NCBI RefSeq assembly: GCF_003334305.1
Contig: NZ_QOWS01000007.1
Reading direction: 5' to 3' (one strand)
DNA from: Escherichia coli
Lineage (GTDB): Bacteria; Pseudomonadota; Gammaproteobacteria; Enterobacterales; Enterobacteriaceae
DNA: 64,000 nucleotides
In this document: in pieces, positions 5,149 through 59,239 of the stretch
How the letters are laid out: each line of letters starts with the position of its first letter
Position numbering within the stretch: position 1 is the stretch's first letter
The notes under the pieces: generated by a model
What the model saw: the letters and a program-made list of their open reading frames with translations, nothing else
Told to the model about the DNA's origin: nothing
Database searches by the model: none
Translations under genes and position numbers: made by a program

Positions 5149-5279
5149 GGGCAATATCTCGACCAGAGTGGTTAATAAATATTGCCGCGGCATTATACAG
5201 AGCGTAACCGATTGCATCTACCCCTTTTTGCAAAAAATGCTTGCTATCCCCGAAGGGCGGGTTACTATCGACTGAATAA

Positions 5280-11659: not shown

Positions 11660-11755
11660 CTCTTTCTGAATATAAAAATGAACCCTCAACGCTTCCCTCA
11701 ATGTTTCGGGAGCTATGCGGGTTCAATCATACACGGGAAGCGAGGCGCTTCCCAT
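11660..11755 (-). ncRNA. sroE: candidate SroE sRNA (3'-UTR-derived from ispG) in the ispG-hisS spacer; boundaries approximate
   Basis: 110-bp spacer with hairpin gggaagcgcctcgcttccc downstream of ispG stop; sRNA placement is from memory. Confidence 0.4.
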
Positions 11756-11762
11756 CACGTTA

Positions 11763-12881
11763 TTATTTTTCAACCTGCTGAACGTCAATTCGACGCGCTT
11801 CGTCCAGCTGACTGGCTTTCGCACGAATGCGTGCTTCCAGCTGGTCGATCATATCGTTGTTGTCCAGACGGTCTTTGCGCACGCCATCTTCATAGAGGCC
11901 GCTTTTCTTGTTGCCGCCGGTGACGCCGAGTGTAGAAACCAGCGCCTCACCTGGGCCATTCACCACGCAGCCGATAATCGAAACGTCCATCGGAGTGATG
12001 ATATCTTCCAGGCGTTGCTCCAGCGCGTTAACCGTACCGATAACATCAAATTCCTGACGCGAACAGGTCGGGCAGGCGATGAAGTTGATCCCGCGCGAAC
12101 GGATACGCAGCGATTTCAAAATATCGAAACCGACTTTGATCTCTTCGACCGGATCGGCCGCCAGTGATACGCGCAGCGTGTCGCCGATGCCTTCAGACAG
12201 CAGCAGACCTAAACCAATGGCGGATTTTACTGCCCCGCTGCGTGCACCACCGGCTTCGGTGATCCCCAGATGCAGCGGCTGATCGATCTGTTTTGCCAGC
12301 AAACGATAAGACTCAACAGCGAGGAAGACGTCAGACGCTTTCACGCTGACTTTGAACTGATCGAAGTTCAGGCGATCGAGATGATCAACATGGCGCATGG
12401 CGGATTCCAGCAACGCCTGCGGCGTCGGTTCGCCATACTTTTCTTGCAGATCTTTTTCCAGCGATCCGGCGTTAACGCCAATACGGATCGGAATGTTTTT
12501 ATCGCGCGCACAGTCAACCACCATGCGAATACGCTCTTCATTACCGATATTGCCAGGGTTAATACGCAGACAATCGACGCCGTATTCCGCTACTTTCAGT
12601 GCAATGCGATAGTCGAAGTGGATGTCAGCCACCAGCGGCACGTTAACCTGCTGTTTGATGAGTTTGAACGCTTCTGCCGCGTCCATCGTCGGTACGGAGA
12701 CACGGACGATATCAGCGCCAACGCGTTCCAGCGCCTTGATTTGATTGACCGTTGCTTCGACGTCTGTCGTACGCGTATTGGTCATGGACTGTACGGCGAT
12801 GGGAGCACCATCGCCAATCGGCACATTCCCAACGTAAATACGTGTTGATTTTCTACGTTGAATTGGAGCCTGGTTATGCAT
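11763..12881 (-). CDS. ispG: 4-hydroxy-3-methylbut-2-enyl diphosphate synthase (IspG/GcpE), 372 aa
   Basis: Full-length ORF; C-terminal Cys cluster [10 protein letters not shown]...GCVVNGPGE. Confidence 0.97.
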
Positions 12882-24604: not shown

Positions 24605-24908
24605 TGCGGCCCTTTCCGCCGTCTCGCAAGCGGGCGCTGGCTTAAGGAAAGGATGTTCCGCGACCGTTAGAGCAAGCGCGTCTCAGCGCTTGCTATCGCG
24701 GCAATATCGCCAGTGGTGCTGTCGTGATGCGGTCTTCGCATGGACCGCACAATGAAGATACGGTGCTTCTGTATCGTACTTATTGTTTCTGGTGCGCTGT
24801 TTTCCCAAGTAAATAATAACCGGAGTCTCTCCGGCGACAATTTACTGGTGGTTAACAACCTTCAGAGCAGCAAGTAAGCCCGAATGCCGCCCTTTGGGGC
24901 GGCATATT
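24605..24908 (+). ncRNA. ryfA: RyfA small RNA locus; 5' boundary approximate
   Basis: About 490-bp gap between sseA and sseB with no long ORF; plus-strand terminator at 24886-24910; ryfA placement here is from memory. Confidence 0.45.
24752..24877 (+). CDS. candidate small hydrophobic protein (41 aa) inside ryfA; possible alternative start at 24740 (45 aa)
   Basis: ATG...TAA ORF MKIRCFCIVLIVSGALFSQVNNNRSLSGDNLLVVNNLQSSK ending 8 nt before the terminator hairpin; only a weak SD (GGA). Confidence 0.3.
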   Translation: MKIRCFCIVLIVSGALFSQVNNNRSLSGDNLLVVNNLQSSK

Positions 24909-24910
24909 TT
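24886..24910 (+). terminator. rho-independent terminator at the 3' end of ryfA, overlapping the sseB stop
   Basis: gccgccctttggggcggc hairpin followed by atatttt. Confidence 0.6.
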
Positions 24911-32283: not shown

Positions 32284-32394
32284 TGCTCTATAAACTCCGT
32301 ACATCACTCAATGCAAGGAATCAGGCTACCGGCTGGATGTACGACCGTGTTTACGGAGTATTTAGCACTCCGGCCTGATTCTGAATTCTTTTTA

Positions 32395-54689: not shown

Positions 54690-55943
54690 TTATGCGTAAA
54701 CCGGGTAACGTGCGCAGATGTCGAGAACTTTACCTTTGATGCGCTCGATAACGGCTTCATCATTGATGCTGTCCAGCACGTCACACATCCAGCCAGCCAG
54801 TTCTTTCGCTTCTGCTTCTTTGAAGCCGCGACGCGTAATTGCCGGAGTACCCACGCGAATACCGGAGGTCACAAACGGGCTCTTCGGATCGTTCGGTACG
54901 CTGTTTTTGTTGACGGTGATGTTAGCACGGCCCAGAGCGGCGTCTGCTTCTTTACCGGTCAGGTTTTTATCGACCAGATCAACCAGGAACAGATGGTTAT
55001 CAGTACCGCCGGAAACCACTTTGTAGCCGCGTTCCAGGAACACTTCTACCATCGCTTTAGCGTTTTTAGCGACCTGCTGCTGGTAAGTTTTGAACTCAGG
55101 CTCCATCGCTTCTTTCAGAGCAACCGCTTTACCGGCGATTACGTGCATCAACGGACCGCCCTGACCACCAGGGAAAACGGCAGAGTTCAGTTTTTTGTAC
55201 AGCTCTTCGCTACCACCTTTCGCCAGGATCAGGCCGCCGCGCGGACCCGCCAGGGTTTTGTGAGTGGTGGTAGTAACAACGTGAGCATGAGGAACCGGGT
55301 TCGGGTAGACGCCAGCAGCAACCAGGCCCGCAACGTGCGCCATATCAACGAACAGGTAAGCACCGATGCTGTCAGCGATTTCACGCATTTTCGCCCAGTC
55401 CACCACGCCGGAATATGCAGAGAAACCACCGATAATCATTTTCGGCTTGTGTTCTTTGGCTTGTTTTTCCAGATCGGCGTAGTCGATATGACCGGTAGCA
55501 TCGATACCGTAAGGAACGATGTTGTACAGTTTACCGGAGAAGTTAACCGGAGAACCGTGAGTCAGGTGACCGCCATGCGCCAGGTTCATACCCAGAACGG
55601 TATCACCTGGTTCCAGCAGCGCGGTGTAGACCGCAAAGTTAGCCTGGGAGCCGGAGTGCGGCTGGACGTTAGCGTAGTCAGCGCCGAACAGTTCTTTCGC
55701 ACGATCGATCGCCAGTTGTTCAACGATATCAACATACTCGCAACCGCCGTAGTAGCGTTTGCCCGGATAACCTTCAGCATATTTGTTGGTCAGCTGAGAA
55801 CCCTGCGCCTGCATTACGCGCGGGCTGGTGTAGTTTTCGGAGGCGATCAGTTCGATGTGCTCTTCCTGACGTACTTTTTCCTGCTCCATAGCCTGCCACA
55901 GTTCGGCATCATAATCGGCAATGTTCATTTCACGCTTTAACAT
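54690..55943 (-). CDS. glyA: serine hydroxymethyltransferase, 417 aa
   Basis: Start at [19 protein letters not shown]-lysine region [14 protein letters not shown]. Confidence 0.97.
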
Positions 55944-56221
55944 CCGCATCTCCTGACTCAGCTAACAATAAAATTTTTGGCCTTTATAGGCGGTCCTGTT
56001 GGACAACGGCGAACAGTATAACCGAATCATTGTGCGATAACAGGTCTTGACAAAGGAATTTACGCAAACGATTACCTTCAGGCTACGCAAGGCTTTGGAG
56101 AATAAAGAGCTTGCAACCGGAAACGGATTTCTTTTCAGGTTTGTGATGCAAATTTTTCACTTCATCACATTCTTTCTGAAAAACACCAAAGAACCATTTA
56201 CATTGCAGGGCTATTTTTTAT

Positions 56222-56244
56222 AAGATGCATTTGAGATACATCAA
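56222..56244 (+). promoter_or_regulatory. candidate NsrR operator overlapping the hmp promoter
   Basis: Imperfect palindrome aagatgcatttgagatacatcaa about 27 nt upstream of hmp ATG; SD aaggaag at 56259-56265. Confidence 0.5.
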
Positions 56245-56270
56245 TTAAGATGCAAAAAAAGGAAGACCAT

Positions 56271-57461
56271 ATGCTTGACGCTCAAACCATCGCTACAGTA
56301 AAAGCCACCATCCCTTTACTGGTGGAAACGGGGCCAAAGTTAACCGCCCATTTCTACGACCGTATGTTTACTCATAACCCAGAACTCAAAGAAATTTTTA
56401 ACATGAGTAACCAGCGTAATGGCGATCAACGTGAAGCCCTGTTTAACGCTATTGCCGCCTACGCCAGTAATATTGAAAACCTGCCTGCGCTGCTGCCAGC
56501 GGTAGAAAAAATCGCGCAGAAGCACACCAGCTTCCAGATCAAACCGGAACAGTACAACATCGTCGGTGAACACCTGTTGGCAACGCTGGACGAAATGTTC
56601 AGCCCGGGGCAGGAAGTGCTGGACGCGTGGGGTAAAGCCTATGGTGTACTGGCTAATGTATTTATCAATCGCGAGGCGGAAATCTATAACGAAAACGCCA
56701 GCAAAGCCGGTGGTTGGGAAGGTACTCGCGATTTCCGCATTGTGGCTAAAACACCGCGCAGCGCGCTTATCACCAGCTTCGAACTGGAGCCGGTCGACGG
56801 TGGCGCAGTGGCAGAATACCGTCCGGGGCAATATCTCGGCGTCTGGCTGAAGCCGGAAGGTTTCCCGCATCAGGAAATTCGTCAGTACTCTTTGACTCGC
56901 AAACCGGATGGCAAAGGCTATCGTATTGCGGTGAAACGCGAAGAGGGTGGGCAGGTATCCAACTGGTTGCACAATCACGCCAATGTTGGCGATGTCGTGA
57001 AACTGGTTGCTCCGGCAGGTGATTTCTTTATGGCTGTCGCAGATGACACACCAGTGACGTTAATCTCTGCCGGTGTTGGTCAAACGCCAATGCTGGCAAT
57101 GCTCGACACGCTGGCAAAAGCAGGCCACACAGCACAAGTGAACTGGTTCCATGCGGCAGAAAATGGCGATGTTCACGCCTTTGCCGATGAAGTTAAGGAA
57201 CTGGGGCAGTCACTGCCGCGCTTTACCGCGCACACCTGGTATCGTCAGCCGAGCGAAGCCGATCGCGCTAAAGGTCAGTTTGATAGCGAAGGTCTGATGG
57301 ATTTGAGCAAACTGGAAGGTGCGTTCAGCGATCCGACAATGCAGTTCTATCTCTGCGGCCCGGTTGGCTTCATGCAGTTTACCGCGAAACAGTTAGTGGA
57401 TCTGGGCGTGAAGCAGGAAAACATTCATTACGAATGCTTTGGCCCGCATAAGGTGCTGTAA
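56271..57461 (+). CDS. hmp: flavohaemoglobin (nitric oxide dioxygenase), 396 aa
   Basis: Start at [17 protein letters not shown]; globin domain then FAD/NAD reductase domain (RQYSLT...). Confidence 0.95.
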
Positions 57462-57904: not shown

Positions 57905-59239
57905 TCATTCCTTGAAATCGTTTGCATCCAGCTCGTGTCGGGAAAGCAGTTTATAAAATTCTGTCCGGTTGCGCCCCGCCATTCTCGCCGCGTGGGTGAC
58001 GTTGCCTTTGGTAATTTGCAGCAGCTTACGCAAATAGTTGAGTTCAAACTGATTACGTGCCTCAACAAAGGTTGGCAGCGCCGTGTTTTCACCCTCCAGC
58101 GCCTGCTCTACTAATGCATCGCTAATAACCGGAGATGAGGTCAGCGCCACGCACTGTTCAATCACGTTGACCAACTGGCGCACATTACCCGGCCAGCTAG
58201 CGGTCATCAGGCGTTTCATCGCATCAGTGGAGAACGCGCGGACAAACGGTTTATGTCGCTCTGCCGCCTGGCGCAACAGGTGATTTGCCAGAAGCGGAAT
58301 GTCTTCTGTGCGCTCTGCCAGAGCCGGAATTTTCAGGCTGACAACGTTGAGGCGGTAATAGAGATCTTCACGGAATTCCCCGCGCGCCATCGCTTTTGGC
58401 AGGTCGCGGTGAGTGGCGGAAATAATCCGCACGTCGATATCAATATCGCGGTTGCTGCCCAGCGGGCGCACTTTACGCTCCTGCAACACGCGCAGCAGTT
58501 TGACCTGCAATGGTGCGGGCATATCGCCAATCTCATCGAGAAATAGCGTACCGCCTTCCGCCGCCTGGAATAAACCTTCGCGATTGCTGACAGCGCCAGT
58601 AAACGCGCCACGCGCATGACCAAACAGCTCCGACTCCAGCAACTGCTCGGGCAATGCGCCACAGTTAATAGCAATAAATGGTTTGCTGTTACGCGGGCTG
58701 GCGTTGTGGATAGCCTGGGCGAAAATCTCTTTCCCGGTGCCGCTCTGGCCATTAATCAACACGCTGACGTCTGATTGCGCCACCAGCCGCGCCTGTTCCA
58801 GCAAACGCAGCATCAGCGGGCTGCGGGTGACAATTGCCTCGCGCCAGCGTTCATCGGTGGCTGGCGCGGATTGCTCCAGCGCATCGTCAATTGCCTGATA
58901 TAGCGCGTCTTTGTCGACAGGCTTGGTGAGGAAACTAAAAACGCCCTGCTGTGTTGCAGCAACGGCATCGGGGATAGAACCATGCGCAGTAAGAATAATT
59001 ACCGGCATTCCCGGCTGCACTTTCTGGATTTCAGCAAACAGCTGCATACCGTCCATTTCATCCATCCGCAGGTCGCTGATAACTAAATCTACTTTTTCGC
59101 GATTCAGTACCCGTAATCCTTCAGCGCCACTTTCCGCCGTGACCACACTGTAGCCTTCGCTGGTCAGGCGCAGGCCAAGCAGTTTCAGCAATCCCGGATC
59201 GTCATCGACCAATAATAAATGCGCAGGTTTATGGCTCAT
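57905..59239 (-). CDS. glrR: sigma54-dependent response regulator GlrR (YfhA), 444 aa
   Basis: Start at [14 protein letters not shown]; receiver domain, AAA+ domain with GAFTGA, C-terminal HTH; start overlaps qseG stop by 11 nt. Confidence 0.93.

Follow-up and report, generated by a model that had tools for sequence, protein, structure and literature searches.

The NsrR operator of hmp in the glyA–hmp divergent region of an Escherichia coli chromosome segment

Enteric bacteria turn on the detoxification of nitric oxide (NO), for instance inside macrophages, mainly through the control of hmp by NsrR. Unregulated Hmp is harmful, as it generates superoxide (PMC2884951). An NsrR site at hmp was predicted from comparative genomics by Rodionov et al. 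in 2005, and a K-12 ChIP-chip study, as summarised in PMC5320621, likewise had hmp among the targets of NsrR. In E. coli CFT073, the hmp site TTGATGTATCTCAAATGCATCTT was positive in ChIP-seq, with a PatSer ln P of -18.22 against a cut-off of -14.28 (Mehta 2015, PMC5320621). The ChIP-seq peak is positioned between glyA and hmp and shows a 3.79-fold enrichment, compared with 9.65-fold at ytfE; the same table contains AAGATGCATTT as 'hmp (44)' and AAGATGCAAAA, with a low score, as 'hmp (19)', where the figures are nucleotides from the start codon (PMC5320621, Table 2). In Salmonella, the sequence AAGATGCATTTGATATACATCAT is bound by NsrR in EMSA and the binding is NO-sensitive (PMC10783083). In V. 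vulnificus, NsrR protects the region from -2 to +18 of hmpA (the site NSRRB; PMC8175989).

The hmp NsrR operator has therefore been known since 2005–2006, and its confirmation in another strain is biologically nothing new. The practical gain of the present analysis is a set of exact window coordinates for the regulatory elements of the glyA–hmp spacer, together with a conservation footprint over 79 species.

The glyA–hmp spacer and its NsrR operator

The window, i.e. the whole stretch of 64,000 nucleotides that was analysed, is a segment of the E. coli chromosome from a strain other than MG1655, with an identity of ~99%. Colinearity with MG1655 over the whole window was ruled out, since indels displace separate segments by 640, 316 and 134 bases, and the offset is zero only in the glyA–hmp region. 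The genes and the translation signal that frame the spacer are as follows.

54690-55943, minus strand: glyA coding sequence (serine hydroxymethyltransferase), from the ORF list and the RefSeq annotation, with the annotated start
56271-57461, plus strand: hmp/hmpA coding sequence (NO dioxygenase/flavohaemoglobin, 396 aa), from the ORF list and the RefSeq annotation
56259-56265, plus strand: hmp Shine-Dalgarno sequence AAGGAAG, read directly and conserved in the alignment

Counted from the annotated glyA start, the spacer occupies 55944-56270 and has a G+C content of 39%; its length of 327 bp is the one given in the sequence-only reading of this DNA. It is 100% identical to that of MG1655, in which the hmp start corresponds to NC_000913.3 position 2,685,835, and it is single-copy in 5426/5426 complete E. 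coli genomes, with an identity of at least 99% in 5385 of them. Downstream of hmp, the ORF list and the annotation give glnB and then glrR, and the nsrR gene is absent from the window. An Rfam scan of the spacer returned zero RNA families. Elsewhere in the window, four E. coli RNA families that are already known were found at the gathering threshold, namely sroE (11672-11763, minus strand), ryfA (24606-24910, plus strand), the iscRS stability element (32285-32394, minus strand) and GlmY (61629-61776, minus strand).

The regulatory 23-mer and the half-sites associated with it are located close to the hmp start.

56222-56244, no strand assigned: NsrR operator in the 11-1-11 layout, AAGATGCATTT-G-AGATACATCAA, based on the published hmp site, matrix, shuffles and conservation footprint
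56222-56232, plus strand: left (strong) NsrR half-site AAGATGCATTT, a perfect match to AAxATGCATTT
56234-56244, minus strand: right (weak) NsrR half-site, reading TTGATGTATCT on the minus strand, with 6/10 of the consensus and a conserved core
56247-56257, plus strand: third, degenerate NsrR half-site AAGATGCAAAA, with the direct repeat TAAGATGCA at a 25-nt spacing

The sequence at 56222-56244 reads AAGATGCATTTGAGATACATCAA, exactly as had been claimed from the letters alone, and the proposed fit to an NsrR operator is borne out, the 23-mer and the published hmp site TTGATGTATCTCAAATGCATCTT being exact reverse complements. It ends 26 nt before the hmp ATG at 56271-56273, so that the earlier estimate of about 27 nt is right within one base. 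The published distances of 44 and 19 nt match positions 56227 and 56252, the midpoints of the left half-site (56222-56232) and of the third one (56247-56257). A full-text search of the literature for the promoter sequence gave Mehta 2015 as the sole match.

The description of the site as an imperfect palindrome holds as well, with the arms self-complementary at 7/11 positions in the 11-1-11 layout, although as a palindrome the site is weak. An inverted-repeat search with a 6-nt seed did not report the operator; given arms that are self-complementary at so few positions, it is undetectable as a palindrome and needs motif scoring. For this purpose we used a symmetrised NsrR matrix, whose training set consisted of the 11-1-11 sites of Mehta 2015 (Table 4) other than hmp, 25 distinct sequences in all. 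The scan, which had been proposed as a check of the sequence-only reading, placed the site above threshold and at the top of the window: with 18.8 bits, the 23-mer ranks first among the 63,978 window positions, and the training sites themselves span 12.4-31.9 bits. With a conservative AT-rich spacer background the score is 15.2 bits, the runner-up position in the spacer reaching 5.1 bits, and 4 of 5000 dinucleotide-preserving shuffles of the spacer matched the 15.2-bit score. The sequence identity to the published site and the motif score are both direct observations on this DNA.

The two arms contribute very unequally. The left arm, which is the sole exact occurrence of AANATGCATTT in the 64 kb, matches the half-site consensus (taken from PMC8175989 and PMC5320621) at 10/10 specified positions and supplies 15.4 of 17.9 bits, and the right arm supplies 2.9 bits. 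Other matches to the NsrR matrix in the window are those at 707-729 (16.1 bits), 16038-16060 (15.8 bits) and 133-155 (15.3 bits), and all three are probably false positives of composition because they are situated in very AT-rich DNA.

Two further features were observed between the operator and the hmp start. An in-frame ATG is present at 56250-56252, 7 codons 5′ of the annotated hmp start and inside the third half-site, and the mechanical hmp ORF begins at 56250. We kept the annotated start at 56271, since no separate Shine-Dalgarno sequence precedes the ATG at 56250, which is unconserved outside Escherichia. A run of A residues at 56254-56260, between the third half-site and the Shine-Dalgarno sequence, has 7 As in the window and 8 in strain EC21Z-083. 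When a 76-nt promoter query was used, 1773 of 5419 E. coli genomes gave identities of 95-99%; length polymorphism of this A-run may be the source of many of these, one of which was inspected.

Promoter geometry and conservation in Enterobacteriaceae

A sigma70 promoter scan of the spacer gave the following core elements for hmp.

56197-56202, plus strand: predicted hmp -35 element TTTACA, from the sigma70 promoter scan, highly conserved in the 79-sequence alignment
56221-56226, plus strand: predicted hmp -10 element TAAGAT, from the promoter scan, with 5/6 bases inside the NsrR left arm
~56233, plus strand: predicted hmp transcription start, 7 nt past the -10 element by promoter geometry, at the central base of the 23-mer

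The -35 and -10 elements are separated by 18 nt in the window, by 17 nt in 37 orthologs and by 18 nt in 36, and the arrangement of TTTACA, a 17/18-nt spacer and TAAGAT is conserved in 73 of the 79 sequences. It is on account of these ortholog spacers of 17 or 18 nt that TAAGAT was preferred over the adjoining TATAAG as the -10 element. An FNR site at hmp has been described as centred at +5.5, which would presumably also give 56233 as +1. The hmp start was also sought in the supplementary start-site data of Ettwiller 2016, with no match. The NsrR site of this NO-detoxification gene is, on the promoter model used here, one that overlaps both the predicted -10 element and the predicted +1.

Conservation was assessed through a protein-based scan of species-representative genomes, which yielded 80 Enterobacteriaceae hmp loci with Hmp identities of 81-99%. 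In all loci with enough upstream sequence (78/78), the divergent orientation of glyA and hmp is kept, and the two genes are 272-346 bp apart. The best NsrR match is found at the homologous position in 79/79 distinct upstream regions (the window included), with scores from 17.9 to 30.1 bits, and it is 25-27 nt from the ATG in 66 of them. The conservation of the site across genera and its overlap with the predicted promoter are thereby seen in the sequences themselves. Seven positions of the left arm (A1, A2, A4, T5, G6, A8 and T9) and four of the right arm (A13, A15, T16 and C18) are invariant, A19 is retained in 74/75, and no constraint is seen at position 14 or at the central base. Judged from the aligned sequences, such mirror-symmetric invariance is the pattern expected of two recognised half-sites. 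The conservation of the left arm could be due partly to the -10 hexamer rather than to the operator.

Among the 79 orthologous sites, the one of Escherichia has the lowest score and its right arm is the weakest, and so low a score is in line with the ChIP enrichment published for hmp, which is modest. The third half-site AAGATGCAAAA was found in Escherichia only among the aligned genera. The footprint over 79 sequences shows NsrR control of hmp to be ancestral in Enterobacteriaceae, with the FNR box described below and the third half-site as recent, lineage-restricted additions.

The FNR box and other readings of the 23-mer

The right half of the operator contains a second recognisable motif, which the sequence-only reading did not mention.

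56231-56244, no strand assigned: FNR box TTGAGATACATCAA (TTGAG-ATAC-ATCAA), 9/10 of TTGAT-N4-ATCAA, overlapping the NsrR right arm

In a consensus scan of the window for FNR, this box was one of 5 sites that had no more than 1 mismatch. An FNR site at hmp was predicted by Myers et al. in 2013, with no ChIP-seq peak (PMC3688515); in vitro binding of FNR at hmp had been found earlier, as far as the citation in the same article conveys. Is FNR, or another factor, the protein that this DNA primarily serves? That 56231-56244 is primarily an FNR operator for the anaerobic repression of hmp, with the resemblance to an NsrR site being secondary, is in our view very unlikely. The match at 9 of 10 consensus positions speaks for it, as do the repression of hmp and the binding at hmp by FNR that are attributed to Cruz-Ramos 2002 where that work is cited in PMC3688515 and PMC2884951. 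However, the box is kept with at most 1 mismatch in 11 of 78 orthologs whereas the core of the NsrR site is invariant, and in vivo no FNR ChIP-seq peak was present at hmp (PMC3688515) while the NsrR ChIP was positive; Rodionov 2005 likewise favoured NsrR over FNR. It is even harder to maintain that the conservation stems only from the hmp core promoter (-10, discriminator and +1) and that the NsrR match is a coincidence of AT-rich DNA. It is true that the left arm overlaps the -10 hexamer, that the spacer is AT-rich with its 39% G+C, and that other AT-rich window positions reach 15-16 bits with the NsrR matrix. Nevertheless, the invariance includes A13, A15, T16 and C18 (with A19 kept in 74/75), which takes it 13 to 18 nt past the -10 element, and it mirrors the left arm, a pattern that sigma70 recognition does not need; in addition, so few shuffles (4/5000) match the score even with an AT-rich background, and occupancy by ChIP has been published.

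A main role at the 23-mer for Fur, IscR or NarL/NarP can hardly be credited at all. Weak repression of hmp by Fur has been described (PMC2884951), and NarP sites have been predicted for enterobacterial hmp genes (PMC1274295), but consensus scans on or near the 23-mer gave at most 11/19 for Fur, 16/25 for IscR type-1 and 9/14 for NarL/NarP, none of which is a good match. We hold with high confidence that 56222-56244 is the operator through which NsrR controls hmp, and FNR is most likely an added layer in some lineages and not an alternative to NsrR.

Given NsrR as the principal regulator, the weakness of the right arm in Escherichia may be considered further. Across the orthologs, better FNR matches go with lower NsrR scores (Spearman rho 0.44, phylogeny uncorrected), a relation that is partly inherent in two overlapping consensus sequences. 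Taken with the low score of the Escherichia site and the third half-site found there, it hints that recognition by NsrR may be traded against recognition by FNR in particular lineages. A bolder idea, which we put forward tentatively and consider rather doubtful, is that the Escherichia hmp operator is losing the symmetry of an NsrR site, with a right arm that is the weakest of 79 because it has shifted towards the FNR box, with AAGATGCAAAA compensating. If this were true, repression in E. coli would depend on one strong half-site plus auxiliary contacts, and would be leakier and more NO-sensitive than in its relatives.

A structural variant of the region was observed in E. coli MS14384 (NZ_LR130562.1, 1301663-1301806), which carries a 25-bp tandem duplication of TTTGAGATACATCAATTAAGATGCA, homologous to 56230-56254. 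The duplication is located between the two TAAGATGCA repeats, and as a result the NsrR right arm and the FNR box are doubled upstream of hmp. In another part of the window, a perfect FNR box, TTGATATATATCAA, was found at 142-155, upstream of a 63-aa ORF (366-557) and at the same spot as the NsrR matrix match at 133-155. From its map position, we take this ORF to be probably yfgG, in the region that corresponds to the yfgF–yfgG spacer of MG1655; yfgF is activated by FNR.

Regulatory model and relation to described systems

The part of the spacer nearer to glyA contains the elements listed here.

56062-56077, minus strand: PurR operator of glyA, AGGTAATCGTTTGCGT, identical in sequence to a published ChIP-chip site (PMC3159470) and conserved across genera
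56147-56159, no strand assigned: MetR-like site TGCAAATTTTTCA, the one nearer hmp, with 1 mismatch to TGAAnnTnnTTCA; putative placement
56125-56137, no strand assigned: weaker MetR-like site GGATTTCTTTTCA, with 3 mismatches to TGAAnnTnnTTCA; putative placement
56026-56053, minus strand: predicted glyA promoter, with -35 TTGTCA (56053-56048), a 16-nt spacer and -10 AATGAT (56031-56026), from the promoter scan

Sites for PurR and MetR had been expected in the spacer by the sequence-only reading; the expectation holds for PurR and, going by the published account of the spacer, for MetR. The PurR site could be placed at 56062-56077, where it coincides with the published glyA site AGGTAATCGTTTGCGT (PMC3159470); with a PurR matrix built without glyA it is the top match in the window (22.0 bits), and this 16-bp dyad resembles ACGCAAACGTTTGCGT and is supported by ChIP. 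For MetR, the consensus TGAAnnTnnTTCA and the presence of two sites in the glyA–hmp spacer are known (PMC5002191), and the sites were sought as two TGAAnnTnnTTCA dyads in tandem, about 21-22 bp apart. The consensus is unspecific, with 21 matches of at most 1 mismatch in the window; 56125-56137 and 56147-56159 are the candidate positions, 22 bp apart from centre to centre and both within the conserved block 56122-56160. The predicted glyA promoter overlaps another highly conserved block, 56035-56055. This block reads GATAACAGGTCTTGACAAAGG and has a perfect TTGACA on the plus strand at 56047-56052 and, on the minus strand, the TTGTCA that is the predicted glyA -35 element.

Two other PurR-like boxes were noticed in the window. 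One, TTGAAATCGTTTGCAT at 57912-57927 (13.4 bits), is just 5′ of glnB, and this 16-mer is among the listed RegulonDB PurR sites (PMC2585596). The other, GCGTAACCGATTGCAT at 5202-5217 (17.5 bits), is the published guaBA PurR site (PMC3159470), and its match is not independent, since the guaBA site was in the training set.

Taken together with what has been published, these elements can be arranged in a model of regulation. A dimer of NsrR, an [Fe-S] repressor of the Rrf2 family, would bind the 11-1-11 inverted repeat, with its strong left arm AAGATGCATTT covering 5/6 bases of the predicted -10 hexamer. Bound NsrR would then keep RNA polymerase off the core promoter, an exclusion suggested by the position of the site centre on the predicted +1; occlusion as the mechanism of repression and the exact +1 both follow from the predicted promoter geometry and are accordingly provisional. 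Upon exposure to NO, the cluster would be nitrosylated, NsrR would leave the DNA and hmp would be transcribed. The overlapping FNR box may add anaerobic repression of hmp, the upstream MetR sites would act on both glyA and hmp, and the PurR site on glyA. The occupancy by NsrR in vivo and the derepression by NO are taken from the literature, and the NO-responsive repression of the flavohaemoglobin gene that the sequence-only reading had suggested is backed by the identity with the published NsrR site, by ChIP and by the NO-sensitive EMSA in Salmonella.

How does the locus compare with the described systems? In V. vulnificus, hmpA likewise has one 11-1-11 NsrR site over the start of the flavohaemoglobin gene, which acts in repression (PMC8175989). 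The surroundings of the site are different: the gene divergent from Vibrio hmpA is nsrR itself, and NsrR acts there in cooperation with Lrp and CRP, whereas in E. coli glyA takes this place, with FNR, MetR and PurR as co-regulators. With the class of FNR repressor sites (TTGAT-N4-ATCAA), the hmp box shares 9/10 positions as well as a location over the predicted start region, but it is unconserved beyond Escherichia, Salmonella and some Citrobacter, and it is silent in FNR ChIP-seq.

The NsrR operator of ytfE, AAGATGCATTTAAAATGCATCTT, shares with hmp the 11-1-11 layout and the left arm AAGATGCATTT. It differs in being a perfect palindrome with a 9.65-fold ChIP enrichment, while the right arm of hmp has 6/10 of the consensus and the enrichment is 3.79-fold. 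Closer still is the hmp target of Salmonella Typhimurium, AAGATGCATTTGATATACATCAT, which is orthologous and differs from that of E. coli at 2/23 positions (PMC10783083). Salmonella has T at both of them, positions 14 and 23, where E. coli has G and A, respectively; each of the two changes lowers the NsrR score of the E. coli site. With the NsrR site described for E. coli hmp itself (Bodenmiller & Spiro 2006; Partridge 2009; Mehta 2015), the site at 56222-56244 shares the same 23 nt, the same distance to the start codon and the same glyA–hmp context. There is no difference between the two, and the site in the window is the same element in another strain.
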